Made by a program: the position numbers and the translations under genes. Source: Promethearchaeota archaeon (GTDB taxonomy: Archaea > Asgardarchaeota > Lokiarchaeia > Sigyniarchaeales > SOKP01). Taken from it: 41,240 nt of DNA. Positions 2,781 to 40,798 of the stretch are shown one piece after another. The stretch lies in the NCBI GenBank assembly GCA_048938445.1, contig JBHLME010000026.1, forward strand, positions 1-41,240, in the 5' to 3' direction. Numbering within the stretch: the stretch's first letter is position 1; each line of letters opens with the position of its first letter. A model generated the notes under the pieces. It had not been told where the DNA came from. It did not search any database and saw only the letters and a program-made list of their open reading frames with translations.

Positions 2781-5700
2781 TTATCGTCTTCGCCTATTTA
2801 TTACGACACCAGTAACACCAATCCCAATAACTAAAGCAGCACCACATCCAAAGACTAAACTCAAAATATAGATGAAATCATTGATATAATCTGCTAGTGT
2901 TGGATCCGTTGGGGTATATGGTACTGTTGCTGGATCTGATTTGGGTCCTTCAACACCATATTCATTGACAGCGGCTACTTGATAAGTTCCTAATAATGGA
3001 TCAATATCCCCTTCCAATGGCATGTAATAAAGTTCAGTATCCGTAGTACTATCAATGAATTCACCATTACAATATACATTGTAATATGAAACTGCTTCAA
3101 CATTTGGAACCCATTCTATATATACTCCAGTTCCTATAGTCATCTGTCGAACAGATACATTCTGAACCTTTACTGGAGTGGGTGGCGCTGTGGCAATGAT
3201 GTAGCCCGACTTGGTCTCGGTGTCGCTATCGGAATTCCTGTCCGTTACCGTCAAGGACACCGTGTAAGTGCCAGGCGTTGAGTACACGTGCGTTGGATTG
3301 GCCAAGTCACTGTCTATTATGCCGTCGCTATCAAAATCCCAGGCATAAGTGACGGGACTGTTGCCCAAGGTACCTGTAGAAGTGAACGTCACGGTCTGAC
3401 CGGTTACTGGATTCAAGATGTCAGCAATAAAATCGATGTCTGGCTGCGTGTCTAAATCCACCGTGATGTAGCCCGTCTTAGTCTCGGTATCGGTATCAAG
3501 ATCACTATCCGTTACCGTCAACGAGACCGTGTAAGTACCCGGTGTTGAGTAGACGTGCGTTGGATTGGCAACGACATAGTCCGTGATGCCATCGCCGTCA
3601 ACATCCCAGGCATAAGTCGAAGGTTCATCACCTAAGTAACCTGAGGAAGTGAACGACACGGTCTGGCCGGTTACTGGATTCAAGATGTCGGCAATGAAAT
3701 CTATATCTGGTACGGTAGTTAATACTACCGTGATGTAGCCCGTCTTGGTCTCGGTGTCGCTGTCGGAATTCCTGTCCGTTACCGTCAAGGACACCGTGTA
3801 AGTGCCAGGCGTTGAGTAGACGTGTGTTGGATTGGCAGTGGTATAGTCCGTGATGCCATCGCCATCAACATCCCAAGCATAAGTGACGGGACTGTTGCCC
3901 AAGGTGCCTGAAGAAGTGAACGACACGGTCTGGCCGGTTACTGGATTCAAGATGTCTGCAATAAAATCGATATCTGGTTGCGTGTCTAAATCCACTGTGA
4001 TATAGCCCGACTTGGTCTCGGTGTCGCTGTCGGAATCCCTATCCGTTACCGTCAAGGACACCGTGTAAGTGCCAGGCGATGAGTAGACGTGTGTTGGATT
4101 GGCAGTGGTATAGTCCGTGATGCCATCGCCGTCAACATCCCAGGCATAAGTCGCGGGACTGTTGCCCAAGGTGCCTGAAGAAGTGAACGACACGGTCTGG
4201 CCGGTTACTGGATTCAAGATGTCTGCAATAAAATCGATATCTGGTTGCGTGTCTAAATCCACTGTGATATAGCCCGACTTGGTCTCGGTGTCGCTGTCGG
4301 AATCCCTATCCGTTACCGTCAAGGACACCGTGTAAGTGCCAGGCGATGAGTAGACGTGTGTTGGATTGGCAGTGGTATAGTCCGTGATGCCATCGCCGTC
4401 AACATCCCAGGCATAAGTCGCGGGACTGTTGCCCAAGGTGCCTGAAGAAGTGAACGACACGGTCTGGCCGGTTACTGGATTCAAGATGTCTGCAATAAAA
4501 TCGATGTCTGGCTGCGTGTCTAAATCCACCGTGATGTAGCCTGTCTTGGTCTCGGTATCGGTATCGAGATCACTATCCGTTACCGTCAAGGACACCGTGT
4601 AAGTACCCGGTGTTGAGTAGACGTGTGTTGGATTGGCAATGTCATAATCCGTGATACCATCACCGTCAACATCCCAGGCATAAGTGGATGGTGTATCTCC
4701 CAAGCTACCTGATGATGTGAACGACACGGTTTGTCCTGTTACTGGATTCAGATTGTCAGCAATAAAATCAATATTTGGAACAAGATTACTGCCAACTACG
4801 ATGTAATCTATTTTTATTTCGGTGTCGCTGTCAGAATCTCTATCTGTTACAGTCAATGAAACTGTATAATTACCTTCTATATTGTAAGTATGTGTTGGAT
4901 TGGCAGTGACATAGTCCGTGATGCCATCACCGTCAACATCCCAAGCATAAGTGATAGGACCGTTGCCCAAGGTGCCTAAAACACTAAAACTCACACTCTC
5001 ACCTATAAGAATGCTCGTTTCATCTGCACTGAAATCGATATCTGGTTGGGTATCTAAATCCACCGTGATGTAGCTCGACTTGGTCTCGATATCGCTGTCG
5101 GAATCCCTGTCCGTTACCGTCAACGAGACCGTGTAAGTTCCTGATGAGGAGTAAATATGCGTTGGATTGGCCAAGTCGCTGTCTATTATACCGTCGTTAT
5201 CAAAATCCCAAGCATAAGCGACAGGACCGTTGCCCAAGATGCCTGAAGAAGTGAACGACACGGTTTGGTCAGTTACTGGATTCAAGATGTCGGCAATAAA
5301 ATCGATGTCTGGCTGTGTGTCCAGATCCACCGTGATATAGCCCGACTTGGTCTCGGTGTCGCTGTCGGAATCCCTGTCCGTTACCGTCAACGAGACCGTA
5401 TAAGTACCTGATGAGGAGTAAGCGTGCGTTGGATTAGCAGTGGCATAATCCGTGATGCCATCGCCATCAACATCCCAAGCATAAGTGACGGGGATATTAC
5501 CTAAAGTACCTGAAGAAGTGAACGACACGGTCTGGTCGGTTACTGGATTTAAAATGTCGGCAATAAAATCGATGTCTGGTTGGGTGTCCAATTCCACTGT
5601 GATATAGCCCGACTTGGTCTCGACATCACTATCGCCATCATCATCAGTGACGGTCAATGAAACCGTGTAAGTGCCCGAAGTAGAATAGGTGTGTGTTGGA

Positions 5701-8336
5701 TTGGCAGTGGTATAATCCGTGATGCCATCGCCGTCAACATCCCAGGCATAGGTCGAAGGTACATTACCCAAGGTGCCTGATGAAGTAAAGCTCACACTCT
5801 CACCTTCAAGAATGAGAGTTACATCGGCACTGAAATCGATTTCTGGTTGGGTGTCCAATTCCACCGTGATGTAATTTGTCTTGGTTTCAGTATCGGTATC
5901 GAGATCACTATCCGTTACCGTCAAGGAAACAGTATAAGTGCCAGGCGTTGAGTAGACGTGCGTTGGATTGGCAGTGGTATAGTCCGTGATACCATCACCA
6001 TCAACATCCCAAGCATAAGTCGAAGGTTCATCACCTAGATCTCCAGATGAGGTGAACGAGACAATTTGACCAGTAACAGGTGTTAAATCATCAGCACTGA
6101 AATCGATATTTGGAACCAAATCTGGTTTTATTTGGTATGTACAAGTTATTCCAAATCCTTCTTTAGTAAAGACATATTGTTCCTTACATTCAGCATCAGT
6201 CATGATACCACTATCAAAATAGGTTCTTTGACAATCTAATGGGTCTGATATAGCATTTACAGTTCCATCATTTCCATAAAACGACATTTCGGAAAAACCT
6301 GCTACATCTTGCCAATACCAATGAACACTACTGTAAGTATCACCTGAAAATATTGCAGACATTTCTTGTACGGGCATGTATGACCACGCACCAGCCGTAT
6401 CAGTTTTTACATACCTCCAATCACTCAATGGATTATCGGTTGCAGCCACGATAGGATTACTCTCATCATAACGTCCAATTACTGGACCAGCATCATTAAC
6501 AAGATAATCTTCTCCACCATTGCTACCATCTGGAACACATACTCGAGTTGTGGCATAAGCAGAATCACATTGAATGTATCCATATCCACTTGGAGCTTGT
6601 CCAAGCCAGACTTCAGGATTATCACTTCTAATATCCGTATGAAGTCTAGTACCTTGATTAAACATGTAATAAGCATGCATGTATACATCTAAGTTTGGAT
6701 CAGTTGCTCCTCGTGGTGAGTAATCCAAATTAATATCAACATTAATATCTTTGAATTCGTTTGCATAGAATAGAGTTGTTTTTCTATAAAAAGCTAAACC
6801 CTCTTCATATTCCATTATATTTACCCCAGCTTCATCTTGATAAGGGAATTGTACTTGTCTTAATGAGAACAAGTCTACAACAACCCTAACTGGGCCATCT
6901 ATAGCACATTCATGATTATTACCAAGTGTAATTAACCCTCTTACAAAAGGACAATACTCGCTAGAACTACCGTAATCTCCATCATGATCCATGTAATCAT
7001 CATATGCGCAAGTTACATATACAAATAGCATACCAAGTTCCCTATATTGATCCCTTGCTGTGCCATGATTTTGTCCGTCTGGTAAAGGTTGATTATATCG
7101 TCGATGTCCATTATTATAGTCAAAATCTTGACCTGGAAATGTAGTATCACCTGGACCCACTCCAAGATTCATTAGATCAAAATCCATTGTCACTGCATAA
7201 CCTATATCGGAATCTATTTCGTCATAAAAGACGCCATTCCACGTTCCCATCCTTGCCGTATCCTGATGAGATTGAGAATTAATAGCTCCTGCGCCAAAGC
7301 TTGCTCCTGCTCTTTGAACATCTAACATGAGTTCTTGCCATTCTTTATTCCATTCGGAAAACATGTTTTGACCCTCAACAGTAATATCAGCAAGATAAGC
7401 TTGATCACCCGTAGAATCATAAGCAAATTCATAATTCTGCCCTATTACGGTTTGTGTAGCAATATCCCAATTGACAAGGTCTGCTCCACCAGTAGGTATG
7501 AAATAATTTTCTGCTGGAGGAGAGGTTCCTGTATCGTCGTTATAATATAGATACATGTAACCTATCTCAGTTGGATTGGCAGGATCGGTAATTGCGATCT
7601 CATATCGATAAGGATATGATGCTGCGTTCCACCAAATAGAAGAACTGACTTGATCACCGTTAAATGAGTAAAAACATAATTCATCATCCCAATCGATCCT
7701 GTCTGGTAATTGCTCCTTAGCATTCCCTGGTTGTTCCTCTAACCATGGCGACTTTGTAGGATCGGGTTGAACGGGTTGTGGATCTTTTTGCGCTGCCCCA
7801 TCACCTACAGGGGAATTCCACGTATCATATACTTCTGCTTCTCTTGCAGCCCAGTATTCCATCACGCAGGTATAATTCGAGAGTTCCTTTTCACTTCCGA
7901 TAGCACCATCAACATGTTTACCCACATATCGGTGATCAGGTATGAAATGACCCCAGTTGCATTGTTCTGTAGTTTGGGAACCACCCGAAAAATCAACAGT
8001 ACCAGAAACAGTTTTCCCTGTCTCATAGGTATAGGATCTAAAATATCCCATTTCATCTAATTGAAAAGGTACTAAGTTCCAAGATCCATCATAATACGCG
8101 ATTCGAATATTGTCTAAATGATGATTTTTTAAAGCGATCCATAATGCTCCTCCATCCGTGTTTTGGTCAAGAATTACGGGATACCCTACTAAGTTAAGAG
8201 TCCCAGAAGTCAAAACTTTTTCAGGATTTTTTTGTATTTTTCCTATATTTACAGCAGTGAATAAAATAGGCAGTAAAAATAGGCTTAATAACATGAAGTA
8301 TTTTAAAATTTTATTCATCTTAGATTTTTTATTCAT
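2781..8336 (-). CDS. Large cell-surface protein: signal/TM segment, ~730-aa unknown N-domain, 11 tandem PKD domains, FN3-like domain, C-terminal TM anchor plus RRRR
   Basis: Start is probably ATG 8336 (GGAGG upstream, overlaps the upstream stop). Repeats read YAWDVDGDG..NPTHVYSTPGTYTVSLTVTD. A hydrophobic C-terminal segment is followed by a basic tail. Confidence 0.9.
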   Translation of the reverse strand: MNKKSKMNKILKYFMLLSLFLLPILFTAVNIGKIQKNPEKVLTSGTLNLVGYPVILDQNTDGGALWIALKNHHLDNIRIAYYDGSWNLVPFQLDEMGYFRSYTYETGKTVSGTVDFSGGSQTTEQCNWGHFIPDHRYVGKHVDGAIGSEKELSNYTCVMEYWAAREAEVYDTWNSPVGDGAAQKDPQPVQPDPTKSPWLEEQPGNAKEQLPDRIDWDDELCFYSFNGDQVSSSIWWNAASYPYRYEIAITDPANPTEIGYMYLYYNDDTGTSPPAENYFIPTGGADLVNWDIATQTVIGQNYEFAYDSTGDQAYLADITVEGQNMFSEWNKEWQELMLDVQRAGASFGAGAINSQSHQDTARMGTWNGVFYDEIDSDIGYAVTMDFDLMNLGVGPGDTTFPGQDFDYNNGHRRYNQPLPDGQNHGTARDQYRELGMLFVYVTCAYDDYMDHDGDYGSSSEYCPFVRGLITLGNNHECAIDGPVRVVVDLFSLRQVQFPYQDEAGVNIMEYEEGLAFYRKTTLFYANEFKDINVDINLDYSPRGATDPNLDVYMHAYYMFNQGTRLHTDIRSDNPEVWLGQAPSGYGYIQCDSAYATTRVCVPDGSNGGEDYLVNDAGPVIGRYDESNPIVAATDNPLSDWRYVKTDTAGAWSYMPVQEMSAIFSGDTYSSVHWYWQDVAGFSEMSFYGNDGTVNAISDPLDCQRTYFDSGIMTDAECKEQYVFTKEGFGITCTYQIKPDLVPNIDFSADDLTPVTGQIVSFTSSGDLGDEPSTYAWDVDGDGITDYTTANPTHVYSTPGTYTVSLTVTDSDLDTDTETKTNYITVELDTQPEIDFSADVTLILEGESVSFTSSGTLGNVPSTYAWDVDGDGITDYTTANPTHTYSTSGTYTVSLTVTDDDGDSDVETKSGYITVELDTQPDIDFIADILNPVTDQTVSFTSSGTLGNIPVTYAWDVDGDGITDYATANPTHAYSSSGTYTVSLTVTDRDSDSDTETKSGYITVDLDTQPDIDFIADILNPVTDQTVSFTSSGILGNGPVAYAWDFDNDGIIDSDLANPTHIYSSSGTYTVSLTVTDRDSDSDIETKSSYITVDLDTQPDIDFSADETSILIGESVSFSVLGTLGNGPITYAWDVDGDGITDYVTANPTHTYNIEGNYTVSLTVTDRDSDSDTEIKIDYIVVGSNLVPNIDFIADNLNPVTGQTVSFTSSGSLGDTPSTYAWDVDGDGITDYDIANPTHVYSTPGTYTVSLTVTDSDLDTDTETKTGYITVDLDTQPDIDFIADILNPVTGQTVSFTSSGTLGNSPATYAWDVDGDGITDYTTANPTHVYSSPGTYTVSLTVTDRDSDSDTETKSGYITVDLDTQPDIDFIADILNPVTGQTVSFTSSGTLGNSPATYAWDVDGDGITDYTTANPTHVYSSPGTYTVSLTVTDRDSDSDTETKSGYITVDLDTQPDIDFIADILNPVTGQTVSFTSSGTLGNSPVTYAWDVDGDGITDYTTANPTHVYSTPGTYTVSLTVTDRNSDSDTETKTGYITVVLTTVPDIDFIADILNPVTGQTVSFTSSGYLGDEPSTYAWDVDGDGITDYVVANPTHVYSTPGTYTVSLTVTDSDLDTDTETKTGYITVDLDTQPDIDFIADILNPVTGQTVTFTSTGTLGNSPVTYAWDFDSDGIIDSDLANPTHVYSTPGTYTVSLTVTDRNSDSDTETKSGYIIATAPPTPVKVQNVSVRQMTIGTGVYIEWVPNVEAVSYYNVYCNGEFIDSTTDTELYYMPLEGDIDPLLGTYQVAAVNEYGVEGPKSDPATVPYTPTDPTLADYINDFIYILSLVFGCGAALVIGIGVTGVVINRRRR
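3193..6116 (-). repeat. Intragenic tandem array of 11 x 267-bp (89-aa) PKD units
   Basis: Units were counted in the translation. The 267-bp period was checked by eye; 3887-4505 is a perfect 267-bp-periodic stretch. Confidence 0.92.
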
Positions 8337-9630
8337 AGTTATCATCCTCCTTCTCTTCATATAATCCATTACCTTGATCATAGTTATTCTCTGTATAATC
8401 ATCTTTTTCTTGCAATCCGCTCAAAAATACATGCTGACTTACTCTTTGTGATACTAACGTTTTTGATTTTGGTTTTTTTTTAGACACTGTACTTCCAAGT
8501 ATTGCAATAGTTGATAGACCAATCATTGCTACTCCTAATATTATTCCTCCCATTCCTAATGTATTTGCTAACGCATTAGTATCCGCTGGTAAACCATAAA
8601 GATATTGGGCTAGAAATGGCATTAATTCATATTCAAAGTCCTGCAACCAATTGAGAATAATTTTCATTTGCTCTGCTGTCAATCCAAACTCAGACATTAA
8701 GTAGCTTGCAATACTTGAATCAGGATTATCTCTTGCTGCTTTCCATCTCTCAATTCCTAGGGGATTGGTTAAAGCATATTCATTTGTTTCATTCCAAAGA
8801 GCCTCAGCTTCATTATATGTTAGATTTAAAGGATTTGGAATTCCTGCCTCTAATCCATAAGCTTCCATAAATCCTAAAGGAAGTGGAAATCCTGGAGCGC
8901 TAACTAGTTCACCATTCGCCCATTGAATTAAGAAATAATAATAAGCTATTGCCTGAATTGTATCATCCACAACAGATAATTCAGGTCTTAAAACTAAATG
9001 CTTACCATCCTCAAGTACTTTAGGAATTCTATTATAAAATACATATATACGAGTATAATTAACAAGAGCAGTTAGTTGATCCCAAGTACATTGGTAATTT
9101 GTTTCCATTTCAGCTATTAACAATGGATTTGTGCTTGCAATAGCATAATTTTCAAAAAATTCAATTGCATCCCAGGCATTTGATTCAAGATTCAACGTAT
9201 CATTTATTAAACCAGGAATATAACCTGATTGTCCTTTAATCCCACTACCAAATAATAATAAACTTTGCGCTTCTGGAGTAAAACTCAAGTTTTTACCATA
9301 ATAATATGAAGGACATAAGAGTTCAACGGTATCAGTTGATTCTGTATATGTGATATTTGCATCTTCACTAATATCATTGAAAAATGTTTCTGATCCATCA
9401 TAATTAGCGTCACAAATTCCATTTGCTAGGTAAAACATTGTAGAACTAAATGTTACATTGACCATATTCTCTACAATAGGTCCAGCTTCATCTCTAATTC
9501 CAATAAGTCCGGTATCAAGATTAGCAGATACTAAATCACCAATATATTGATCAGCAATTACTCCGACGGGAAGTATCACGCTTCCAAATAGTAATAATAT
9601 GACCGCAGTAAATGTTAATTTTTTTGACAT
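8329..9630 (-). CDS. Secreted/membrane-anchored hypothetical protein, translationally coupled to the PKD protein
   Basis: N-terminal signal peptide, many NxS/T sequons, C-terminal TM followed by a KKKPK and acidic cytoplasmic tail. Its stop overlaps the next ATG (ATGAATAA). Confidence 0.75.
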   Translation of the reverse strand: MSKKLTFTAVILLLFGSVILPVGVIADQYIGDLVSANLDTGLIGIRDEAGPIVENMVNVTFSSTMFYLANGICDANYDGSETFFNDISEDANITYTESTDTVELLCPSYYYGKNLSFTPEAQSLLLFGSGIKGQSGYIPGLINDTLNLESNAWDAIEFFENYAIASTNPLLIAEMETNYQCTWDQLTALVNYTRIYVFYNRIPKVLEDGKHLVLRPELSVVDDTIQAIAYYYFLIQWANGELVSAPGFPLPLGFMEAYGLEAGIPNPLNLTYNEAEALWNETNEYALTNPLGIERWKAARDNPDSSIASYLMSEFGLTAEQMKIILNWLQDFEYELMPFLAQYLYGLPADTNALANTLGMGGIILGVAMIGLSTIAILGSTVSKKKPKSKTLVSQRVSQHVFLSGLQEKDDYTENNYDQGNGLYEEKEDDNYE

Positions 9631-10374: not shown

Positions 10375-10509
10375 ATGGCAAAATGGGTATGTGATGCTTG
10401 CGGGTATGTCTACGACGAAGAAGCTGAGGGAACGAAATTCGAGGATCTACCCGACGATTGGACCTGTCCTGTTTGCGGGGTAGGTAAAGATATGTTTACA
10501 AAACAATAA
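10375..10509 (+). CDS. rub: Rubredoxin (44 aa; not in ORF track)
   Basis: [44 protein letters not shown], with a GGTGA SD at 10365-10369 and a T-rich tract downstream. Confidence 0.95.
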
Positions 10510-14865: not shown

Positions 14866-17800
14866 CTAGTTTTTTGGAATAAGAACAATAAAATTGCTTC
14901 CTTTAGAGTGATCTCCTTGAATTTTATCTTGAACATTAATTTCTCCACCATAACTTTCGATAGTTTTTTTAACCAAGGATAGTCCAATTCCCATTCCTTT
15001 ACCACCCTTATATTCCCTATTTCCTACTTCAAAAATCTTGTCTTTTCGTGAATCTTCTACTCCTATTCCATTATCAATAAATTCTATCTTTACATATTCA
15101 TTTATAACCTTTTTAACGAAAGAAATTTTTATTAAAATCTCTATAATTTTCTGATTATTATAACTAACAGCATTTATCAATAAATTCTCAAATGCGTCTA
15201 ATAATAACTCGTTAGCATTGACATTAATGTCATTTGTATTCGTCTCAATATGAATTAAAATTTCTTTATCATGATATTTTTTTCTTAAAAAATTAATTGC
15301 CTCATTTAAGAAATAACACAAATTTATTTTCTGTAGTTCAATGTTTAAATCATCCACTCTAGATAACTTCTGGACGTTTGAAATTAATTGAGCTCCTCTA
15401 TTAGCACTCTCTTTGATAATTTCTAAAATTTCATTAATATCTACAGTATTGTCCTGATTTTTATTAAAAAGGGAATAAAGCTCAACTGATGATAATACTC
15501 CTTGAAGGATATTATTCATATCGTGCGCAAAAAGGTCTTTATAGAAATTGGCACGGTCAAAAGCTTTTCGATAATTTGCTTCAGATGCTTTTAATTCATC
15601 TTCTGCAGTCTTGCGTTCACTTATATCATTTATTATTGCTTGAATAAATCTCATTTCCCCTATTTGGACGAATGACAATTGAGAAGAAATCCAAATTTTT
15701 TTTCCATTTTTATTATATATGAGAAGTTCTCTTGGTTTGGGAAGTTCTCCATTGTGAATTTTATTTTGCCTCGCCTTAAAATTTAAGTATTCCATTTCAG
15801 GATATAAATGGAATTCTTTGTAATGTTTCCCTATTACATCTTCTAGAGACAATCCTATTAATTGTAAAAGAGCGTTATTGATATCTATTATGATTCCTTT
15901 AAAATTGAAAAGTGCGATTCCAAAGGGCGCAGTATTGAATAAATTCCTGTACTTCTCTTCGGATTCTTCTAATTTTTTTTGGAGGTTAATATCCCTCGAA
16001 ATTCCATAAAATCCAATCCTTTCTCCATTGGAATCCGTTTTTAAGTATGCAGCAATTTCAATATATTTTTCTTCTCCAAGTTTGGTTATAATTTCATATT
16101 CTAGTATAATTTGTTGCTTCTTATAATTGTAAAGTTCGTTATATTGTTTTTTTATCCAAGGAATATATTTGTCTATAACATATAAACTAAAGTTTGTTCC
16201 TATTAACTCTTCCTCAGAATAACCCATAAAATCGCAGATTTCTTTACTAGCAACAATATAATCACCTCTAAGATTGACTTCATAATATCCATCATAGTTC
16301 TTTTCTATAATACCTCTAAATTTTTCCTCAGATCTTTTTAAATTTTCTTCCGCTCTCTTTCGTTCAGTTATATCTCGAACAAAAATTAGAACTTGATCAT
16401 CAGAGAGATATAAAAGCCGCGCTTCAAATGATTTTAGATCTTTTATCAATTCAAGATCATATTCCAATACTTGAGGTTCTCGTGTTTCTATAGTTTTTTT
16501 TACAGCAATGAGACTTTCTCTCGCGATTTTTACAGGCATTATATCTGTCAATTTTTTTCCCATAAATGATTCTGGTGTGAGGTAAAAATCATTTAAATTA
16601 CCTTTATAATCTAATATTGTGGTATCTCCGGTAACCAGGAAATAAATGTCGGGGATTGCTTCAAAAATGCTTCTAAATTTTAATTCAGATTCCTTTAATT
16701 TCAATTCGGAATCCTTTCTATCTGTAACATCTTGAATTATAGCATGAAAAAATATTTCGTGATTAATAGTAAATGCTGATAAGTTGGAATTAATCCATCT
16801 TTTACGACCATCTTTTAAGGTTACTTGAAATTCTACAGGATCAACCTGTTTCCCGTTTATAAGTGAATCCTGCCTTTTTTGGAGTAATTTAAAAGTTTCT
16901 GGAGGAAAGTTCAGAATATTTAATGATAGTTTTCCAACTAAATCACCTTTTTCTATACTAAATAATTCTTCTGTAGTATCATTTACATCAAGGATGATTC
17001 CATTAGAATTCATTATGAAAACGGCAAATGGAGATATGTTGAATAGATGACGGTATCTCTCCTCAGATTCCCTTAATTGGAGTTCAGTTTCTTTAATGTC
17101 AGTAATATCAATATGAGAGATAAAATCTGCTGGTCTACCATTATATAATATAGTTTTTGAGATAGTCCGGGTCCATCGAATATCTCCATTTTTATGAATA
17201 AATCGGTATTCATACTCATTGACAACATCTTTCTCTCCTTTTTGTTTTTTAATCGCCTGCTCTCTTACAAAGTCCCTATCATCAGGATGCACGAGGTTTT
17301 CTAAAAGCGTGGTTAAATCCCAATCCTTTATTTCATCTCTTAAATATCCTGCTTGTTCGGCTAATCTTCCATTAAAAAACTTCATTTCATTATCTTGTAA
17401 AATTGTAATACCTATTGATGATTCTTCAGCTAAACTTCTGAATTTTTCTTCTGATTCTTTTAATTTTTCCTCGGTTCTTTTCATATCTGTAATATAAACT
17501 TGAGATATAAAATCCGCGGGTCTTCCATTATAAGTTATTGTTTTCGATAAATTTTTTACCCATATTATATCACCATTCTTATTAAATAATCGATACTCAT
17601 ATTCAACAACTACATCCTTTTCACCCACTTGCTTTTTAATAGCTTGTTCTCTAATAAAATCTCTATCCTCTGGATGTACTGTTTTTACAAGATCAGCTAA
17701 TTTCCAATTTTTTATTTCTTCATGAGGATAACCAAGCTCTTCAGAAACTTTATGATTAATAAATTTAATCTCATTATCCTGCAAAATTGTAATACCTATT

Positions 17801-19389
17801 GAAGACTGTTCTGCAATTGTTCTAAATTTTTCTTCAGATTCTTTTAATTTTTGTTCTGCTTCTCGTTTCTCTGTTATATCAATAATGGTTACTAAATCCG
17901 CGGGACGCCCATTATATCTAATAGTCGTAGAGATATTATCAACCCAGAACTTTTCACCTGAACTCTTGATACAATGTATGGGATATTGAAGTATTATATT
18001 AGAATCTCCCATTTGTTTCTTCCGTGCTTGTTCCATGACAAATTCTTTTGAATCCTCGGCTACCGTTTTAGCATACTCTTTTGGTGACCATGTAAGCATT
18101 TCCTCTCTATCATAACCAAATAAATCTGCCATTTTCTGATTTGTATAAACAACACGATCATCTTGTAAAATAGTAATAGCTAAATGAGAGTCCTCTGCTA
18201 TAGTTCTGAAATTTTCTTCAGATTCTTTTAATTTTTGCTCGGCATTTTTTTGTTCGGTTATATCTTGAATAATTGCTTGAAAAAAATCTTGTTCTCCAAT
18301 TTTTACGAAAGCTATTTCGTTTTTTATAATTGCGATAGAGCCATCCTTCTTTTTTATTTCCAATTCCTGTGGTTCTATAACACCTTTTTTTGTTATTGCT
18401 TGAAACCTCTCTTTTAACGTGTTAATTATGCGTTCTGAATAAAAGGGCAATTCCAAATAATTTTTACCAATTAATTCCTCAATAGAATATCCAAATATTT
18501 TCTCAGTAGCAGAATTGCATTCTATAATCTTTCCAGTAAAATCAATTAATACGATCGCATTTGGAGACTTTTCAAATAAATTTCGATATTTTTCTTCAGA
18601 TTCTAGTATTTTTTTTTCCGCTATTTTGCGGTCAGATATATTCCTCCCTATTGCAACTATATATTTAAGACTTTTTTTTTCATCGAATATTCCAGATGCG
18701 ATATATTCAAATGGAATAAAATATCCATCTTTAGTTTTGAGATGTGCTTCTGCAACTGCATTTTCTCCTTTTTCTATTAACTTTATTGCCTTAGATAATT
18801 TTAAAAGATCATCCTCACTGTAATAACTCTGAGGAGCTTTTAAATTTCTTATTTCTTCATCACTATATCCACTTATCTCATTAAATGCTTTATTCCATCT
18901 TATTGGTTTTCCGGTAGAAGGATCAAAAACGAAAAAAGTATCCATTTGAGTATTTAATGCAGTTTCTGTGAATTTTTTTTCTCTTAGAAGGGCCTCTTCA
19001 CTCTTTATTCTTTCCGTGATATCTCGAGAGATTCCAATTAAAATATCCTTATCATGTACTTTACCTTTAGTTATCTTTGTTTCGACGGGAATCAAGTTTC
19101 CCTCCTTGCCCCTGATGGGAAGATTATAAGAATCGGTTTCCCCTTTCAATAATTTAGAAAGGCTCTTAGATCCCTCATCTTGTATTTCTTGCGGATGCAA
19201 TATTACAAATGGTTTATTAAATAAATCTTCTATAGAATACCCTAATCTCTCAGTTACTGCTTTATTTATTTTTAAGATCTTCCCTTTTGAATCTAATATG
19301 AATAAAAAATCATGAATCAAGTCATAAAAATGAGCGTGTTTTTCATCAAAATCCAATTCATTTAACGCATCATTTGGATCGGGGGTCAT
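14866..19389 (-). CDS. Cytoplasmic sensor histidine kinase with 10 PAS domains
   Basis: Ten PAS/PAC units joined by ESEEK(F/Y)R linkers. H-box FAHDMNNILQ, N-box ENLLINAV, G1 DNGIG, G2 GMGIGL. Confidence 0.93.
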   Translation of the reverse strand: MTPDPNDALNELDFDEKHAHFYDLIHDFLFILDSKGKILKINKAVTERLGYSIEDLFNKPFVILHPQEIQDEGSKSLSKLLKGETDSYNLPIRGKEGNLIPVETKITKGKVHDKDILIGISRDITERIKSEEALLREKKFTETALNTQMDTFFVFDPSTGKPIRWNKAFNEISGYSDEEIRNLKAPQSYYSEDDLLKLSKAIKLIEKGENAVAEAHLKTKDGYFIPFEYIASGIFDEKKSLKYIVAIGRNISDRKIAEKKILESEEKYRNLFEKSPNAIVLIDFTGKIIECNSATEKIFGYSIEELIGKNYLELPFYSERIINTLKERFQAITKKGVIEPQELEIKKKDGSIAIIKNEIAFVKIGEQDFFQAIIQDITEQKNAEQKLKESEENFRTIAEDSHLAITILQDDRVVYTNQKMADLFGYDREEMLTWSPKEYAKTVAEDSKEFVMEQARKKQMGDSNIILQYPIHCIKSSGEKFWVDNISTTIRYNGRPADLVTIIDITEKREAEQKLKESEEKFRTIAEQSSIGITILQDNEIKFINHKVSEELGYPHEEIKNWKLADLVKTVHPEDRDFIREQAIKKQVGEKDVVVEYEYRLFNKNGDIIWVKNLSKTITYNGRPADFISQVYITDMKRTEEKLKESEEKFRSLAEESSIGITILQDNEMKFFNGRLAEQAGYLRDEIKDWDLTTLLENLVHPDDRDFVREQAIKKQKGEKDVVNEYEYRFIHKNGDIRWTRTISKTILYNGRPADFISHIDITDIKETELQLRESEERYRHLFNISPFAVFIMNSNGIILDVNDTTEELFSIEKGDLVGKLSLNILNFPPETFKLLQKRQDSLINGKQVDPVEFQVTLKDGRKRWINSNLSAFTINHEIFFHAIIQDVTDRKDSELKLKESELKFRSIFEAIPDIYFLVTGDTTILDYKGNLNDFYLTPESFMGKKLTDIMPVKIARESLIAVKKTIETREPQVLEYDLELIKDLKSFEARLLYLSDDQVLIFVRDITERKRAEENLKRSEEKFRGIIEKNYDGYYEVNLRGDYIVASKEICDFMGYSEEELIGTNFSLYVIDKYIPWIKKQYNELYNYKKQQIILEYEIITKLGEEKYIEIAAYLKTDSNGERIGFYGISRDINLQKKLEESEEKYRNLFNTAPFGIALFNFKGIIIDINNALLQLIGLSLEDVIGKHYKEFHLYPEMEYLNFKARQNKIHNGELPKPRELLIYNKNGKKIWISSQLSFVQIGEMRFIQAIINDISERKTAEDELKASEANYRKAFDRANFYKDLFAHDMNNILQGVLSSVELYSLFNKNQDNTVDINEILEIIKESANRGAQLISNVQKLSRVDDLNIELQKINLCYFLNEAINFLRKKYHDKEILIHIETNTNDINVNANELLLDAFENLLINAVSYNNQKIIEILIKISFVKKVINEYVKIEFIDNGIGVEDSRKDKIFEVGNREYKGGKGMGIGLSLVKKTIESYGGEINVQDKIQGDHSKGSNFIVLIPKN

Positions 19390-19687
19390 GATTCTTTCTA
19401 ATCCATGTTTTCGAATGTTTTAAATTGAATTTATAAATAAAAATCTTATTCTTTATTTTATTAGTTTGAACTCTATCTATCAAATATAAGGGGTTTGGAA
19501 GTAATATTAATTAGAATAATTTCACTATATATCCTTATCTAAAGAATAGAAGATAAAAGTTATATTTAATTTCTCGCTTTTTTGAATTTATGAGATAATT
19601 TTATATTTTATAGGAATTAAACTTAATATTTTTCTAAAGATCCTTTATATCAAATTATATTCATAATAATAAAAGGTGAAATAAATC

Positions 19688-20905
19688 ATTAAGAATTTAG
19701 AAATCTTAAAAGATGTGTTTTTTGTTGGATATGTTGATTGGGAAGTTAGAAATTTTCATGGATATTCTACTCATAAAGGAAGTTCCTACAACGCTTACAT
19801 AGTCAAGAGTGGTGATAAAACCATTTTAATCGATACTGTCAAACGTCCTTATTTTAATTACTTTTTGAAAAACATAAAAGATGTATGTGATCCCGGCGAA
19901 ATTGATTATTTTATAGTTAATCATATTGAACCTGATCACTCCGGTTCATTTCCTTTAATTATATCACACCTCCCAAATGCTGAGATCATAGCATCTGTGA
20001 AAGGTGTTGAAATCTTGGAGCAACATTATCATGAAGAAGTAGATGTAGAAGTTTTCAAGAAAATACGAGCGGTTGGAGAAGGAGATACATTAGATGTTGG
20101 AAATGGTAAAGTTTTTACTTTTGTACCTATCCCAATGATTCATTGGCCAGATTCAATGGTATCTTTCATGTCTGATGAAAATGGAAAAAATGTGTTATTT
20201 TCTAACGATGCTTTTGGTCAACATTTAGCAACATCAAAATATTGGGATGATGAAAATCCAATTTCTGAGATATTTGAACAAGCAGCGAAATATTATGCAA
20301 ACATCTTATTGCACTTGTCTAAATTAATTGCCAAAACACTCCCTGCAGTAGGAGCACTCCCAATTGATATTATCTGTCCTTCACACGGTGTTGGATGGAG
20401 ATCTCACATACCAAAAATTATTGAAGCTTATACTAAATGGTCAAGTGGGGAAATTGAAGAAAATAGTGTCCTTATAGTATATGATACGATGTGGGAAAGT
20501 ACTGCAAAAATCGCGAAAGCCTTATACCAAGAAATATTTAAAAGGGGGATTCCAGTTAAGAGGTATAGGCTAACAAATGCAGATTATAGTGATGTGATCA
20601 CTGAGTCAATGAAAGCAAAAGCAATTTTAGTAGGAAGTCCAACTTTAAATATGGGATTGTACCCAACTATAGCAGAATACCTCTCTTATCAAAAGGGATT
20701 GAAACCAATGAATAAAATAGGATTAGCATTTGGTTCATATGGTTGGAGCAAGGGTGCTGTTAAGGCAATAATTGAGGAATTAAAAGCTACGAAAATCGAT
20801 GTTATGGATGAATCAATCGAAATTAAATTCGTTCCTCGCAGTGAAGACCTTAATTTTAAGGAAATAGTTGATAAGTTAGTTGAAAAAATGGAAAAGGGGG
20901 CTTAA
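19688..20905 (+). CDS. fprA: Flavodiiron protein (FprA/A-type flavoprotein); probable ATT start at 19688 (track: GTG 19715)
   Basis: GSSYNAY, NHIEPDHSG, HWPDSM, SNDAFGQH, PSHG, and flavodoxin domain YDTMWESTAK / AFGSYGW. Confidence 0.93.
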   Translation: MKNLEILKDVFFVGYVDWEVRNFHGYSTHKGSSYNAYIVKSGDKTILIDTVKRPYFNYFLKNIKDVCDPGEIDYFIVNHIEPDHSGSFPLIISHLPNAEIIASVKGVEILEQHYHEEVDVEVFKKIRAVGEGDTLDVGNGKVFTFVPIPMIHWPDSMVSFMSDENGKNVLFSNDAFGQHLATSKYWDDENPISEIFEQAAKYYANILLHLSKLIAKTLPAVGALPIDIICPSHGVGWRSHIPKIIEAYTKWSSGEIEENSVLIVYDTMWESTAKIAKALYQEIFKRGIPVKRYRLTNADYSDVITESMKAKAILVGSPTLNMGLYPTIAEYLSYQKGLKPMNKIGLAFGSYGWSKGAVKAIIEELKATKIDVMDESIEIKFVPRSEDLNFKEIVDKLVEKMEKGA

Positions 20906-20906
20906 A

Positions 20907-22268
20907 TTGGATTTTTCCTTAACTGATGAACAAATAAAGCTTCAAATGAAAGCAAGAGAGTTTGCGCTAAATCATATCCTTCCCGTTGTTCATAAATATG
21001 ATGATATTGGAATAACTCCATTGCACGTTATTGAAGAAGCATGGAAAGCAGGACTGATGAATTTAGACATCCCTAAAAAATATGGTGGGAATGAGTATGG
21101 TTTACTGGATTCCTCATTAGTTGTTGAGGAACTTGCTGCCTCGGGACCTGGAATGGCAACTAGTATCTTCGCTAATGGTCTGGGAGAAGAGCCGCTATTA
21201 ATGTCTGAGAATGAAGCTTTAAAAGAGGAAATATGTAAAGATCTATTAAATAGTTTTGGTTTAATCTCATTTGCAACTTCTGAACCAGTTATGGGTTCTG
21301 ATGTTGGAGGGATGATATGTAAGGCTGATAAAGATGGAGACGAATGGATCCTTAATGGAAAAAAATATTGGATCACAAATGCGGGTCTCGCGAAATATAT
21401 CTCTCTTTTTGCGAATGCCGATCCTAAGTCAAGACATAAGGGTATCTGTGGATTTATAATAAGAACTGATAAAGAAGGCGTAAAAACAGGAAGTCACATT
21501 GAAAAAATGGGTCATAGGTGTTCCAATACAACAGTTGTAGATTTAAAAGATTATAGGGTGCCTCCAGGTGATGTATTAGCGGAACCTGGTAAAGGTTTTC
21601 CGTTAGCGATGAAAACATTCGCGAGAACTCGACCAATTATTGGTGCGATGGCTACTGGGTTAGCTCGTTCGGCTATGGAATGGGCAATTCATTATGTTAA
21701 AAAACGCAAAGCATTTGGTCAACCGCTTGCTGAATTTCAAGCACTCCAGTTTAAAATAGCTGAAATGTATCAAAAAGTGGAAACTGCTCGATTGATGACA
21801 TGGAGGGCTAGCTGGGATGCAGATACAGGGAAAGATCCGCTGATATGGGCTTCAATGACCAAGTTTTATGCAACTGAGATTGCGTTAGAAGTTGCGAATG
21901 ATGCCTTACAATGTTATGGTGGTTATGGCTATACAAAAATGATGCCAATAGAAAAATTATTTCGAGATGCGAAGCTATATCAGATTTATGAAGGAACCAC
22001 ACAAATTCAGAAATTAATCATATCGAGACATGCTTTGGGATCATATCAACCAATAATGCCTGCAATAGAAGATGTACCTTACGCTCCTGTCGATGAGGAT
22101 TGGAAACAAAAAACGGAATATTGGGATGATATTAATAAATCAAAAGGAGCTAAAAAAGCGTGGAGATGCCGTATTTGCGGCCATATTCATTATGGAGATG
22201 AGCCACCAGAAGAGTGCCCGGTCTGTAAATATCCTAAAGGTGTCTTCAAGGAAGTTTGGTCAATATAA
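20907..22268 (+). CDS. Acyl-CoA dehydrogenase with C-terminal rubredoxin-like domain
   Basis: TTG start gives MDFSLTDEQ. FATSEP..GSD, LNGKKYWITN, RKAFGQ, GGYGY, IYEGTTQIQ; C-terminal WRCRICGHIH...PEECPVC. Confidence 0.92.
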   Translation: MDFSLTDEQIKLQMKAREFALNHILPVVHKYDDIGITPLHVIEEAWKAGLMNLDIPKKYGGNEYGLLDSSLVVEELAASGPGMATSIFANGLGEEPLLMSENEALKEEICKDLLNSFGLISFATSEPVMGSDVGGMICKADKDGDEWILNGKKYWITNAGLAKYISLFANADPKSRHKGICGFIIRTDKEGVKTGSHIEKMGHRCSNTTVVDLKDYRVPPGDVLAEPGKGFPLAMKTFARTRPIIGAMATGLARSAMEWAIHYVKKRKAFGQPLAEFQALQFKIAEMYQKVETARLMTWRASWDADTGKDPLIWASMTKFYATEIALEVANDALQCYGGYGYTKMMPIEKLFRDAKLYQIYEGTTQIQKLIISRHALGSYQPIMPAIEDVPYAPVDEDWKQKTEYWDDINKSKGAKKAWRCRICGHIHYGDEPPEECPVCKYPKGVFKEVWSI

Positions 22269-22524
22269 TCAAAGAAATTTTTCTTTTTTATTTTTTTAAG
22301 TTTAACTTTTCAATAAGGAAAGTCTGAGGATTTAAACTCACTTTTCATGTTCATGATCTACACTTAATGTTAATTGAAAACTTATACAGTTAAAATAATA
22401 GTAATATTTTAGCTTTTATATTCCAATTTAAATTATATGATATAAATTCAAATTCAATAAAGTTAAATCATTGATAATTATTTCAAATTTCAATGATTAA
22501 TTAAAAAAAAATGGTGAATTCTAA

Positions 22525-34612: not shown

Positions 34613-35203
34613 CTAATATATATGGACTTTATCTAATACAGTATAAATTGTTGTTTTATAGATTTCATAATAATAATTTGTGGGAATTAATTCTTTAATT
34701 CTTGAGATAAGATTGTCAATTACTATTTTATTAATATCGGGAAATTTATCATAAAGATCATGATCATTTTTATGAAGAAAAACTGTAACCTCTACCTTAA
34801 TATTTAAAAGCTTTAAATTATCTATAATTTTTTTAAAATAACTTAATGCTTTATTATATTTATTCATATCTTGAATATCAATAACAAAAAATAATTCCTC
34901 AGTATCAGTAATGTAATTTTTAAAATTATCCAAATATTCTTTAATAGAATTATCTTGTCCGCCAAGATCCCAAAGGATAAAATTCAAATCTCCTTTTTTT
35001 AGCGATTTTATATCATATCCTTTTGTGGGATTAATCTTAATATATTCTAATAAATTGTCTTTTCCTAATATATTTAAAATTATGGATGTTTTTCCGCTAT
35101 TTTCTAATCCCATAACTAAGATTTTTTTTCCAATCTCTTCTACTTCTATTTTATCTGTTGGATCCATTTTAAGTTTAATTTCTTTTAAATTTAAAGTATT
35201 CAT
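34613..35203 (-). CDS. Ras-superfamily small GTPase (Arf/Rag-like)
   Basis: G1 GLENSGKTS, G2 PTKG, G3 WDLGGQ, G4 HKND, G5-like KTTIY. Confidence 0.88.
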   Translation of the reverse strand: MNTLNLKEIKLKMDPTDKIEVEEIGKKILVMGLENSGKTSIILNILGKDNLLEYIKINPTKGYDIKSLKKGDLNFILWDLGGQDNSIKEYLDNFKNYITDTEELFFVIDIQDMNKYNKALSYFKKIIDNLKLLNIKVEVTVFLHKNDHDLYDKFPDINKIVIDNLISRIKELIPTNYYYEIYKTTIYTVLDKVHIY

Positions 35204-35538
35204 TATTTCAAAATATCAATATTATTAGAATCTGTTAAATTATGGAATTTCTTACTGTGCTGTTCGATGACATATGAATTTACAGCAGATATGACTCTAA
35301 AAATATTTTGATTTTTTATTAAATAATATTTAAGCCCTTCAATTCTAGTATGGGAGATTATATCTGAACGCTCTAATTGTTTTAATTGTTGAGATGTGTA
35401 AGATTGACTAATATTTAAAGCATTTTTAATTTCCCTTGCTGTTTTCTTTTCTTTTTTCAGAAATTTTACTATATTTAATTTAATTGGATCACTTAAAATT
35501 TTTAAAAATTCTGAAGTCTCAATAGTTAATTCATCCAT
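35203..35538 (-). CDS. ArsR-family winged-HTH transcriptional regulator
   Basis: LKILSDPIKLNIVKFL...ISQSYTSQQLKQLERSDII; its stop overlaps the GTPase start (TAATG). Confidence 0.88.
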   Translation of the reverse strand: MDELTIETSEFLKILSDPIKLNIVKFLKKEKKTAREIKNALNISQSYTSQQLKQLERSDIISHTRIEGLKYYLIKNQNIFRVISAVNSYVIEQHSKKFHNLTDSNNIDILK

Positions 35539-38699: not shown

Positions 38700-39266
38700 A
38701 TGTCGATAGTAATAGAAAATTTAAAGGAGGCAATAATTGGAGAAAGTAATGCTAAAAGGAAATATGAGCTCTTTGCAGAACAAGCAAAGAAAGAAAATCT
38801 TGGAGAAATTAGTCATCTATTTAATGCAGTGGCATTTGCAGAGAGTATTCATATAAAGAATCACGTAAAGGCACTTTCTACTATTTTAAGTAATCCTATT
38901 AATCCTGAAGATTTTGTTGTAATTAATGAAGACGAACTAAAAAGCAAGGTAAAAGATACACGCTCCAATCTTATTGATGCGATTAATGGAGAAACTTATG
39001 AATTTAAAAAAATGTATAAAAACTTTATAAAAAATGCTCGAAAGAATGGGGAAGATGTCGCAGAACTCTCCATTGATTTGGCAAGGAAAGCAGAAAACGT
39101 GCATCGAAAATTATATTCAAGATTCTTAAAAAAGCTCGAGAAAAATCAAAGTGTTGAACCTTTAGAAATTTACATTTGCTCGATTTGTGGCAATGTAGAG
39201 TTAAATAATATCCCGAATGTTTGTCCAATATGCGATCACTCACAAAAGTACTTTATAACAAAATAA
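38700..39266 (+). CDS. rbr: Rubrerythrin
   Basis: GESNA, AESIH, GETYE, AENVH and C-terminal CSICG..CPIC. Confidence 0.92.
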   Translation: MSIVIENLKEAIIGESNAKRKYELFAEQAKKENLGEISHLFNAVAFAESIHIKNHVKALSTILSNPINPEDFVVINEDELKSKVKDTRSNLIDAINGETYEFKKMYKNFIKNARKNGEDVAELSIDLARKAENVHRKLYSRFLKKLEKNQSVEPLEIYICSICGNVELNNIPNVCPICDHSQKYFITK

Positions 39267-39372
39267 TTTGTTTGAAATTCAATTATATAAGATTTATAAT
39301 CTATAAAAAGAATAATTAAATTGTTCTATAGATTAATTAATCCAATAAAATAATTCGAAATAATGATTTATA

Positions 39373-39876
39373 ATGACTAAAACAGAAGATAATTTAAAAG
39401 AAGCATTTGCGGGAGAGAGCCAGGCAAACAGAAAATATTTAGCCTTTGCAGAACAAGCTGAAAAAGATAGTTTGCCTCAGATCGCAAAATTATTCCGAGC
39501 AGCGGCTGCTGCAGAAACAGTTCATGCCCATAATCACTTAAGAGTGTTAGGTGGGATAAAATCCACGGTTGAAAATCTTAAGGCTGCTATCGGTGGGGAA
39601 CACTATGAATTTACTAGTATGTATCCTCAATTTATAGAAGATGCAAAATCTCAAGGAAATAAACAAGCTGAAAGAAGTTTTAATTTAGCAAATCAAGTGG
39701 AAAAAATACATCATGGTCTTTATGAGAAAGCTTTAGAAGCTGCTGAGAGTGGTAAAGATTTAAAAGCTCAAAAAATAAGTATTTGCTCTGTCTGTGGCTA
39801 TACTCATGAAGGAGAACCCCCAGAAAAATGTCCCGTGTGTGGAGCTCCCAAAGATAAATTTAAAAAAATTGAATGA
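39373..39876 (+). CDS. rbr: Rubrerythrin
   Basis: AFAGESQANRKY, AETVHA, GEHYE, VEKIH and CSVCGY..PEKCPVC. Confidence 0.95.
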   Translation: MTKTEDNLKEAFAGESQANRKYLAFAEQAEKDSLPQIAKLFRAAAAAETVHAHNHLRVLGGIKSTVENLKAAIGGEHYEFTSMYPQFIEDAKSQGNKQAERSFNLANQVEKIHHGLYEKALEAAESGKDLKAQKISICSVCGYTHEGEPPEKCPVCGAPKDKFKKIE

Positions 39877-39940
39877 AGATTTTTTTTATCTTTAATTTTT
39901 TTCTCTATTATCAAATAATCACATTTATCCATTAAAATCG

Positions 39941-40798
39941 ATGTTAATTTCACAATTTCATAAATTATATCAAGAGAATGGATTAGATTCTCAAGTAATT
40001 AGTAGTTTCCAAAAGATAATTTATTCCTATTTTAAACAAAACGGTCGAGACTTTCCCTTCAGGAATGACACGACACCCTATAACGTGTTAATCTCTGAAA
40101 TGATGCTCCAACAAACTCAAACGGGCCGGGTCTCTGAAAAATATCTTGAATTTAAAAAAAAATTTCCCGATTTCAAAACACTCGCAAGTGCACCACTAGA
40201 GGATGTTTTAAAAATATGGCAAGGATTGGGTTACAATAGAAGAGCTATAGCATTGAAGAAGATAGCAGAAATAATAATAGAAGACTATGATGGAAAATTA
40301 CCTGAGAAAGTTGAAATATTAAAAAAATTTCCTCAAATTGGGCATAACACGGCATCTTCGATAATTGCATTTGTATTTAATAAACCAGTTGTTTTTATTG
40401 AAACAAATATTAGAAGAGTTTACATCTACTTCTTTTTTCCTAAAAAGAAAACCATTGATGATAGAGAAATTCTTCCACTTGTAGAAAAAACACTTGATGT
40501 GAAAAATCCAAAAGAATGGTATTATGCATTAATGGATTATGGAGTCATGTTGAAAAAACAACATCCTGAACTGAATAAAAGGAGTGCCCATTATAGAAAA
40601 CAAGCATCCTTTAAGGGTTCAAACAGGCAAATAAGAGGAAAAATCCTTAAACTTCTTATAAAACAATCTGAAATAACTCAAATGGAGCTTTTAGAAAAAT
40701 TAAATATTGATAAAAAAAAATTAAACGCAATTCTAACTCAAATGGAAAAGGAAGGTTTTTTAAGATATAAGGATGAAATGATATTCATACGGGAGTAA
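39941..40798 (+). CDS. mutY: A/G-specific adenine glycosylase (MutY-like, lacking the Fe-S motif)
   Basis: RDFPFR, SEMMLQQTQ, WQGLGYNRRA, HhH PQIG, ETNIRR, ALMDYG; no Cys cluster. Confidence 0.85.
   Translation: MLISQFHKLYQENGLDSQVISSFQKIIYSYFKQNGRDFPFRNDTTPYNVLISEMMLQQTQTGRVSEKYLEFKKKFPDFKTLASAPLEDVLKIWQGLGYNRRAIALKKIAEIIIEDYDGKLPEKVEILKKFPQIGHNTASSIIAFVFNKPVVFIETNIRRVYIYFFFPKKKTIDDREILPLVEKTLDVKNPKEWYYALMDYGVMLKKQHPELNKRSAHYRKQASFKGSNRQIRGKILKLLIKQSEITQMELLEKLNIDKKKLNAILTQMEKEGFLRYKDEMIFIRE

Follow-up and report, generated by a model that had tools for sequence, protein, structure and literature searches.

Can an archaeon pass electrons from acyl-CoA oxidation straight to oxygen through soluble proteins, without an electron-transfer flavoprotein (ETF)? 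The question is raised by two adjacent genes, one for a flavodiiron protein (FDP) and one for an acyl-CoA dehydrogenase (ACAD) fused to a C-terminal rubredoxin-type domain (Rd), in a Promethearchaeota archaeon (GTDB lineage Asgardarchaeota; Lokiarchaeia; Sigyniarchaeales; SOKP01). We analyzed positions 1–41,240 of the forward strand of contig JBHLME010000026.1 (assembly GCA_048938445.1), and this whole stretch of 41,240 nt is called the window. Asgard archaea are the closest prokaryotic relatives of eukaryotes, and models of eukaryote origin have yet to settle how they handle or use oxygen. Our analysis suggested that the FDP and the ACAD-Rd fusion are probably encoded as one operon and together act as a soluble acyl-CoA:oxygen oxidoreductase independent of ETF, in which electrons would run from acyl-CoA through Rd and FDP to O2. 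The observations behind this reading are gene order, domain content, conserved residues, family-wide pairing, and repeated recruitment of Rd. If it is correct, the operon would represent a concrete mechanism of oxygen tolerance, with acyl-CoA oxidation wired to O2 reduction without ETF, quinone, or membrane chain, and could ease the electron-disposal problem for syntrophic Asgards.

The locus is composed of the following parts.

19639–19655, forward strand: AT-rich element GATCCTTTATATCAAAT with a TATA-like core, approximately 35–50 nt before the FDP start (DNA alignment)
19674–19680, forward strand: AAGGTGA, resembling a Shine-Dalgarno site, 7 nt upstream of the ATT codon at 19688 (sequence inspection)
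19688–20905, forward strand: class A FDP (FprA), 405 aa (Pfam ODP and Flavodoxin_1)
20907–22268, forward strand: ACAD-Rd fusion, 453 aa, start codon TTG (open reading frame [ORF] and Pfam)
20907–22040, forward strand: ACAD core, aa 1–378, similar to medium-chain acyl-CoA dehydrogenase (MCAD) (Pfam N, M, and C domains)
22041–22160, forward strand: linker, aa 379–418, 40 residues (alignment and AlphaFold2)
22161–22250, forward strand: rubrerythrin-type Rd domain PF21349 (RUBY_RBDX), aa 419–448 (Pfam)
22278–22297, forward strand: T-rich run just past the ACAD stop codon, the next gene starting at 22525 (sequence inspection)

An initial annotation of this DNA, made from its letters alone, had placed the FDP, the ACAD, and the start of the Rd at about 22161, and these coordinates hold in both the sequence and the Pfam matches.

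The open frame of the FDP runs from 19685 to a TAA stop codon at 20903–20905. Its product showed Pfam matches to ODP (4.6e-22, aa 34–234) and Flavodoxin_1 (3.3e-14, aa 263–388); it thus pairs a diiron domain of the metallo-beta-lactamase-like type with a flavodoxin domain and carries nothing further, the composition of a class A FDP. Residues H79-x-E81-x-D83-H84, H152, D174, and H233 were invariant in all 19 orthologues examined from the window's own Asgard family (hereafter f1) and aligned with the matching motifs of 1ycf; we take these seven residues (HxExDH, H, D, H) to be the ligands of the diiron site. Among solved structures, the FDP of Moorella thermoacetica (1ycf) was the best relative (4.7e-99), with E. 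coli flavorubredoxin and then Desulfovibrio gigas rubredoxin:oxygen oxidoreductase (1e5d) behind it, and the methanogen F420H2 oxidases matched less well (5e-73 and 1.2e-70). By these similarities, the window FDP looks rubredoxin-dependent, being nearer to the Moorella/Desulfovibrio type than to the F420H2 oxidases.

The ACAD gene begins with TTG at 20907, 1 nt past the FDP stop codon, and is preceded by a G-rich, Shine-Dalgarno-like run; in relatives, the intergenic gap between the two genes is 1–20 nt. A start at the earlier TTG (20880) was disfavored because all orthologues begin with MDF(S/N)LT, which fits 20907. The core matched Acyl-CoA_dh_N (2.6e-19), Acyl-CoA_dh_M (5e-19), and Acyl-CoA_dh_1 (3.4e-50). 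Its best solved relatives were pig and human MCAD (3.1e-100, the score of 1udy), and butyryl-CoA dehydrogenases scored lower (1buc, 2.1e-64; 5ol2, 9.2e-72). A Foldseek search with the ACAD retrieved 3mdd with 44% identity and a TMt of 0.93. The catalytic glutamate, E362 of the YEGT motif, aligns with the MCAD motif and was invariant in 23 of 23 aligned homologues. With its three-domain ACAD fold and catalytic glutamate, the protein belongs to the MCAD/SCAD group of ACADs.

Behind the core, the linker opens with a conserved Y-x-P-x-M-P-x-x-E-D-x-P stretch, in which Y380 and P385 were invariant and M384, E388, D389, and P391 were at least 90% conserved, and continues as a poorly conserved helix. 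The Rd domain matched PF21349 over positions 1–30 of 30 (4e-13; 49 bits, the cut-off being 26.5). Its four cysteines, C421, C424, C437, and C440 (Cx2C-x12-Cx2C), were invariant in all 23 homologues, as were G425, Y429, P434, P438, and F447, and the domain is presumed to hold an Fe(SCys)4 one-electron center. The AlphaFold2 model of the fusion had a mean pLDDT of 84.7 and a pTM of 0.82; the core and the Rd were modeled with confidence (82–89) and the linker poorly, with block pLDDT falling from 80 at aa 381–390 to 57–66 over aa 391–420 and a helix at 399–411. None of the solved ACAD chains listed by Foldseek carried the linker and Rd; approximately 370–390 columns were aligned, and the longest target had 393 residues.

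To place the pair among its relatives, we searched 301 genomes of the phylum and found an ACAD-Rd orthologue (E ≤ 1e-80) in 183. The closest database homologues of the fusion were annotated as Promethearchaeia or Promethearchaeota archaeon (74–77% identity). FDP orthologues at ≥ 73% identity gave 53 rows, all from f1, the next best match being 51% identical. In 51 of the 53 rows, the FDP was directly followed by an ACAD in the same orientation (48 matched by coordinate comparison and three more with the ACAD truncated at a contig end), and the other two rows were cut by contig ends. The FDP-ACAD pair is a real, conserved feature in f1. The best 29 orthologous loci were assigned to three forms, apart from four fusions (L012–L015) of the sister Asgard family f2.

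Form A: rubrerythrin-type Rd (PF21349, 30 aa), protein of 453 aa; the window and L009–L011; FDP adjacent in all
Form B: canonical PF00301 rubredoxin (47 aa), protein of 466–470 aa; 11 complete loci (L016–L025, L036) and one truncated; FDP adjacent in 7 of 12
Form C: ACAD without Rd, protein of 391–393 aa; 10 loci; FDP adjacent in 10 of 10

The neighborhoods of form C were examined in 20 loci with 5-kb flanks. In 18 of them, a free rubredoxin gene of the same orientation preceded the FDP (within 250 bp in 13 and at 0.95–2.8 kb in five), one locus had none, and one reached a contig end; these rubredoxins were 71–100% identical to that of L037. Superoxide reductase (SOR) and/or rubrerythrin lay within 5 kb in 19 of the 20 loci. 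The free upstream rubredoxin was also retained in form-B loci and was absent from form-A loci. Since forms B and C keep it and stress genes lie nearby, the ancestral cassette, as read from gene order, is rd-fdp-acad inside an oxidative-stress gene cluster. The FDP-linked ACAD gained a tethered Rd in two different ways. The window itself holds a free rubredoxin and further rubrerythrins at a distance from the operon.

10375–10509, forward strand: free-standing rubredoxin, 44 aa, PF00301 at 2.7e-15 (Pfam, tblastn)
38700–39876, forward strand: two tandem rubrerythrins, 188 and 167 aa, each with Rubrerythrin and RUBY_RBDX domains (Pfam)

The free rubredoxin is 91% identical to that of L037 by tblastn but lies 9 kb from the FDP. 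The tandem rubrerythrins might also take up electrons from rubredoxin and are part of the same oxidative-stress gene set. Next comes a fusion of an HhH-GPD DNA glycosylase with a winged-helix domain (38700–40798 for all three genes, forward strand); at 16 kb from the operon, the three may make up a module against oxidative damage.

These forms bear on the nature of the fused domain. Cys4 knuckles bind zinc in many proteins and sequence cannot tell the metal, so the domain could be a zinc ribbon with a structural role or a docking tag without redox activity, or the enzyme could run in reverse as a rubredoxin-dependent enoyl-CoA reductase; the FDP would then be fed by free rubredoxin, by an NAD(P)H:Rd reductase, or by F420H2, and the pairing would reflect co-regulation only. 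The free rubredoxin upstream of the FDP in form-B loci suggests that a fused Rd is not strictly needed, and methanogen FDPs use F420H2 (as far as the accessible text of PMC8498797 describes them). We nevertheless regard this explanation as very unlikely. The match to the rubrerythrin FeS4 domain covers its full length and exceeds the Pfam cut-off, an unrelated bona fide rubredoxin (PF00301, 82 bits) sits at the same position in the form-B sister proteins, and the FDP resembles Rd-dependent FDPs more than it does F420H2 oxidases. Rubredoxin potentials lie near 0 mV. The reverse reaction would have little driving force, with the butyryl-CoA/crotonyl-CoA couple at −10 mV (accessible text of PMC12288474).

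Three known systems can be compared with the locus. In the chains of D. gigas and M. thermoacetica, electrons pass from NAD(P)H through a reductase or Hrb and rubredoxin to a class A FDP. The FDP-ACAD system shares with them a class A FDP that would be fed by a rubredoxin-type center and the clustering of rubredoxin, rubrerythrin, and SOR genes; it differs in that the electron source is an ACAD rather than a pyridine-nucleotide reductase and that the Rd is fused to this source. With the MCAD/ETF system, for which a complex has been solved (1t9g), it shares the ACAD fold and catalytic glutamate (42–44% identity), whereas the window locus has no ETF partner and its ACAD adds the C-terminal linker and Rd. 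The closest counterpart was one that the initial annotation had named from Fusobacterium nucleatum as similar. That system is real and is the right comparator: the butyryl-CoA:oxygen oxidoreductase BOOR (Bystrom & Wolthers, Biochemistry 2024; accessible text of PMC12288474 and PMC12528894). According to these sources, FN1423, a class A FDP, is bicistronic with the fusion protein BCR, in which a butyryl-CoA dehydrogenase is followed by the C-terminal portion of EtfA, carrying a second FAD, and then by a rubredoxin; BCR and FDP form an alpha4beta4 complex that oxidizes butyryl-CoA with O2, yielding water, and has no NO reductase activity (PMC12288474, PMC12528894).

The likeness is in the layout: two genes, one for a class A FDP and one for an ACAD ending in a rubredoxin-type domain, make up a unit, with the same proposed flow (acyl-CoA to flavin to FeS4 to FMN to diiron site to O2) and a proposed role in the oxygen tolerance of a strict anaerobe. 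It does not extend to the EtfA-type FAD domain of BCR, which the window protein lacks and in place of which it has its 40-aa linker. Further, the window dehydrogenase is nearer to MCAD than to butyryl-CoA dehydrogenases, its Rd is of the short rubrerythrin type, and its host is an Asgard archaeon. In the window, the FDP gene comes first. The window fusion thus fails one defining feature of BCR, the EtfA domain, yet may work like it. Relative to BOOR, the system is EtfA-less, MCAD-like, and archaeal; across f1 it uses two types of Rd, and the form without Rd has a free rubredoxin as complement. The initial annotation knew of no archaeal description, and in the literature searched, which did not include the primary BOOR paper, we found no Asgard FDP-ACAD operon or EtfA-less ACAD-Rd fusion; the match for Asgard and flavodiiron concerned a methanogen F420H2 oxidase.

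The same comparison bears on the gas that is reduced. FDPs as a family reduce O2 and/or NO (accessible text of PMC12288474), the 1ycf structure was deposited as 'nitric oxide reductase', and E. coli flavorubredoxin ranks next to it, which would fit a pair whose main role is to reduce NO to N2O with electrons from acyl-CoA and not to reduce O2. We consider this highly improbable. BOOR, the only characterized ACAD-linked FDP, is described in the accessible text of PMC12288474 as being without NO reductase activity, and the neighborhoods of the window's relatives hold genes for defense against O2 and reactive oxygen species (SOR, rubrerythrin) rather than nitrogen-oxide genes. O2, rather than NO, is the probable acceptor.

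For the acyl-CoA:oxygen oxidoreductase, the following chain can be proposed. The MCAD-like ACAD would oxidize a short- or medium-chain acyl-CoA to enoyl-CoA on FAD; the reduced FAD would give up single electrons to the Fe(SCys)4 center of the Rd tethered by the 40-residue linker; the Rd would reduce the FMN of the class A FDP, with which the fusion may form a physical complex; and the FDP diiron site would reduce O2 to water. The benefit would be that an anaerobe removes O2 with a weak reductant instead of NAD(P)H and gains an extra outlet for acyl-CoA electrons. Rubrerythrin-type FeS4 centers have unusually positive potentials. A positive potential of the Rd would suit a weak donor and might explain why the EtfA flavin is dispensable. 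If the proposal holds, the window pair would be a minimal form of BOOR, and it asks whether the ACAD flavin feeds the rubredoxin center directly. The three layouts (free Rd, fused canonical Rd, and fused rubrerythrin-type Rd) would then amount to a natural experiment in electron-wire design.

The word ETF-independent needs a boundary. No ETF family had a Pfam match among the 29 window ORFs scanned, in agreement with the initial annotation, which had seen no ETF genes in the window, and ETF_alpha had no Pfam match in the ACAD-Rd protein, linker included. A whole-genome search found two ETF-alpha genes, on contigs C12 and C117 only, each within approximately 2 kb of another ACAD paralogue. ETF serves other ACAD paralogues of this genome, and none is near the FDP-linked ACAD. 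Because of the genes on C12 and C117, the earlier claim of oxidation without ETF is true of the locus and not of the organism.

We constructed trees of the ACAD core with the Rd removed (a quick tree of 93 rows and a careful one of 57), rooted on the genome's own paralogues; support is given as ultrafast bootstrap/SH-aLRT, and bacterial plain ACADs were sparsely sampled. The rubrerythrin-type fusions formed a single clade in both trees (100/99). Forms B and C of f1 formed its sister clade (100/99), the two together receiving 99/93, and the plain ACADs of other Asgard families branched below both. Within the rubrerythrin-type fusions, the window's group (100/100) was sister to a clade (100/99) in which the remaining archaeal fusions were joined by one clade of bacteria (100/100). 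An approximately unbiased (AU) test rejected one clade of all FDP-linked f1 ACADs, a group that was defined after inspection of the tree (delta lnL 40.3, p = 9e-5). At equal FDP divergence (approximately 79%), identity of the ACAD core was 72% within form A versus 57% to form C. Two separate ACAD lineages thus occupy the position behind an FDP that was itself inherited vertically, which argues that function, and not mere inheritance, keeps an ACAD there.

Monophyly of the archaeal rubrerythrin-type fusions was not rejected (AU test, p = 0.16), and a nesting of the bacteria inside the archaeal fusions is thus not established; the bacterial clade is sister to or nested in the archaeal fusions, within an otherwise Asgard clade. 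With the nesting unsettled and bacterial plain ACADs sparse, an Asgard origin followed by export to bacteria is a lead, not a result. Taken jointly, the data allow a tentative and rather doubtful wider reading, in which Loki-type Asgards own a home-grown, ETF-free acyl-CoA:O2 oxidoreductase, Rd was recruited at least twice within Asgards, and the rubrerythrin-type form was exported once to sulfate-reducing and spirochaete bacteria. Were this wider reading true, the system would be a minimal soluble 'terminal oxidase' for beta-oxidation and for amino-acid-derived acyl-CoAs, and for syntrophic anaerobes trace O2 as an electron sink could replace a hydrogen-consuming partner.

The bacterial fusions also bear on whether the FDP is the proper partner of the fused Rd. 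All 120 listed best matches to the ACAD-Rd protein carried PF21349, and in one bacterial class the rubrerythrin-type fusion occurred in 46 of 201 genomes. Genomes bearing the bacterial fusion encode FDPs elsewhere: in that class, an FDP was present somewhere in 46/46 fusion-positive versus 135/155 fusion-negative genomes. Since FDPs are nearly universal in the class and kin are not independent, this co-presence is uninformative.

Several observations weigh against the proposed acyl-CoA:oxygen oxidoreductase. No FDP lay within 1.5 kb of the fusion in any of 30 bacterial loci, nor within 6 kb in any of three further bacterial loci among the matches listed, where the neighbors were unrelated housekeeping genes. 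In f2, fusions L013–L015 had no orthologous FDP next door, and the upstream DNA of L012 was too short. Within f1, five canonical-Rd fusions (L017, L018, L020, L022, and L036) stand without an adjacent FDP; L018, L036, and L200 read rd-ACAD with the FDP missing; and a search with the window FDP found no FDP at E ≤ 1e-60 in genomes G135, G183, and G186, which keep the fusion. In the window itself, the FDP begins with ATT where relatives have ATG, which may reduce its expression, and the FAD relay of the BOOR type is missing, direct transfer from FAD to Rd being an assumption. The conserved adjacency by which the initial annotation had proposed to judge the pair therefore stands for f1 (51/53) and does not extend to bacteria (0/33) or f2 (none of L013–L015).

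From these data one may argue that the ACAD-Rd is a general acyl-CoA:rubredoxin oxidoreductase for the oxidative-stress network (rubrerythrin, superoxide reductase, any FDP), of which the FDP operon is one local wiring, the fusion not being a dedicated FDP subunit. Fusions without a neighboring FDP are common in bacteria and f2, some f1 genomes keep rd-ACAD(-Rd) after loss of the FDP (G135, G183, and G186 being among the fusion keepers), SOR or rubrerythrin clusters with the cassette in 19 of 20 loci while two rubrerythrins lie in the window, and all 46 fusion-positive bacterial genomes hold an FDP somewhere (as do most fusion-negative ones). Set against this are the near-invariant, tight FDP-ACAD pairing in f1, which points to a preferred partner, the fixed alpha4beta4 complex of BOOR (accessible text of PMC12288474), and the tether itself, since a tethered Rd is less free than a free one to visit several partners. 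We judge a general donor unlikely as the full explanation and keep the FDP-directed oxidoreductase as our reading. The loss of the FDP in relatives that keep ACAD(-Rd) indicates that the rubredoxin module is not tied to the FDP alone, and this, with the missing pairing in bacteria and f2, means that the ACAD-Rd may be a general source of reductant for which the FDP is the preferred partner in f1.

A few related loci and searches complete this comparison. Locus L201 (G138:C39) has the order rubredoxin, a 34%-identical FDP-like gene, and ACAD, a distant paralogue filling the FDP slot. A nitroreductase-family gene lies directly downstream of the FDP-less fusion in L018 (G147, Pfam), and the ORFs at this position in L012–L014 appeared alike by eye. 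In another Asgard family (f9), the FDP and a plain ACAD are convergent, 1.3–2.6 kb apart, with no rubredoxin between them; we rejected this arrangement as an operon and regard it as a loose neighborhood. L109 is a 36%-identical bacterial protein that matches query residues 1–445. A search with the linker and Rd of form B yielded 18 clusters of ACAD with PF00301, of which the named ones were all Promethearchaeota, Promethearchaeia, or Thorarchaeota. The 75-aa linker and Rd of the window protein was also tried as a probe for the architecture and was discarded as uninformative on ACADs: it gave 1650 matches, the best 150 of which consisted mostly of 2–5 tandem Rd-like stretches. Many database proteins of 180–760 aa (P0147–P0166) carry three to five tandem rubrerythrin-type Rd-like units.

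Around the start of the FDP gene, the ATT at 19688 aligned exactly with the ATG of the three closest orthologous loci in a DNA alignment, and using the next canonical start, GTG at 19715, would cost nine conserved residues. Possible reasons for the ATT are a weak start of non-canonical type, a recent mutation of the start codon, or an error in sequencing. The AT-rich element GATCCTTTATATCAAAT, which the window shares with L009 and L010, the two loci of the same genus, is a candidate archaeal promoter; the T-rich run at 22278–22297 is a candidate archaeal terminator. A sigma-70 promoter scan, which does not cover archaeal promoters, gave 14 sites versus 16.5 expected from shuffled controls, and counts from an intrinsic-terminator scan, which is ill-suited to archaea, were not above shuffles. 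Divergent from the FDP gene and 298 bp from it lies a gene for a 1507-aa histidine kinase with many PAS domains (14866–19389, reverse strand). The same-genus genome G273 (L205) has a homologous PAS kinase, 44% identical across the C-terminal 750 aa, at the same divergent spot by the FDP. The kinase might sense redox state or O2 on behalf of the FDP-ACAD operon.

Elsewhere in the window, Pfam identified a TFIIB gene and a small GTPase gene of the Gtr1/RagA-Arf type, the latter paired with a short ORF. Both genes, like the source names of the closest homologues, agree with an Asgard origin of the DNA.

34613–35538, reverse strand: Gtr1/RagA-Arf family small GTPase and a 111-aa ORF (Pfam)

The stop codon of the 111-aa ORF overlaps the GTPase start by one base on the same strand, and the two make an Asgard-type, eukaryote-like signature pair. 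A 1873-aa protein encoded at 2781–8402 on the reverse strand contains 11 PKD repeats and traces of FG-GAP (Pfam), and the G+C content around it rises to 0.48 versus approximately 0.30 elsewhere.

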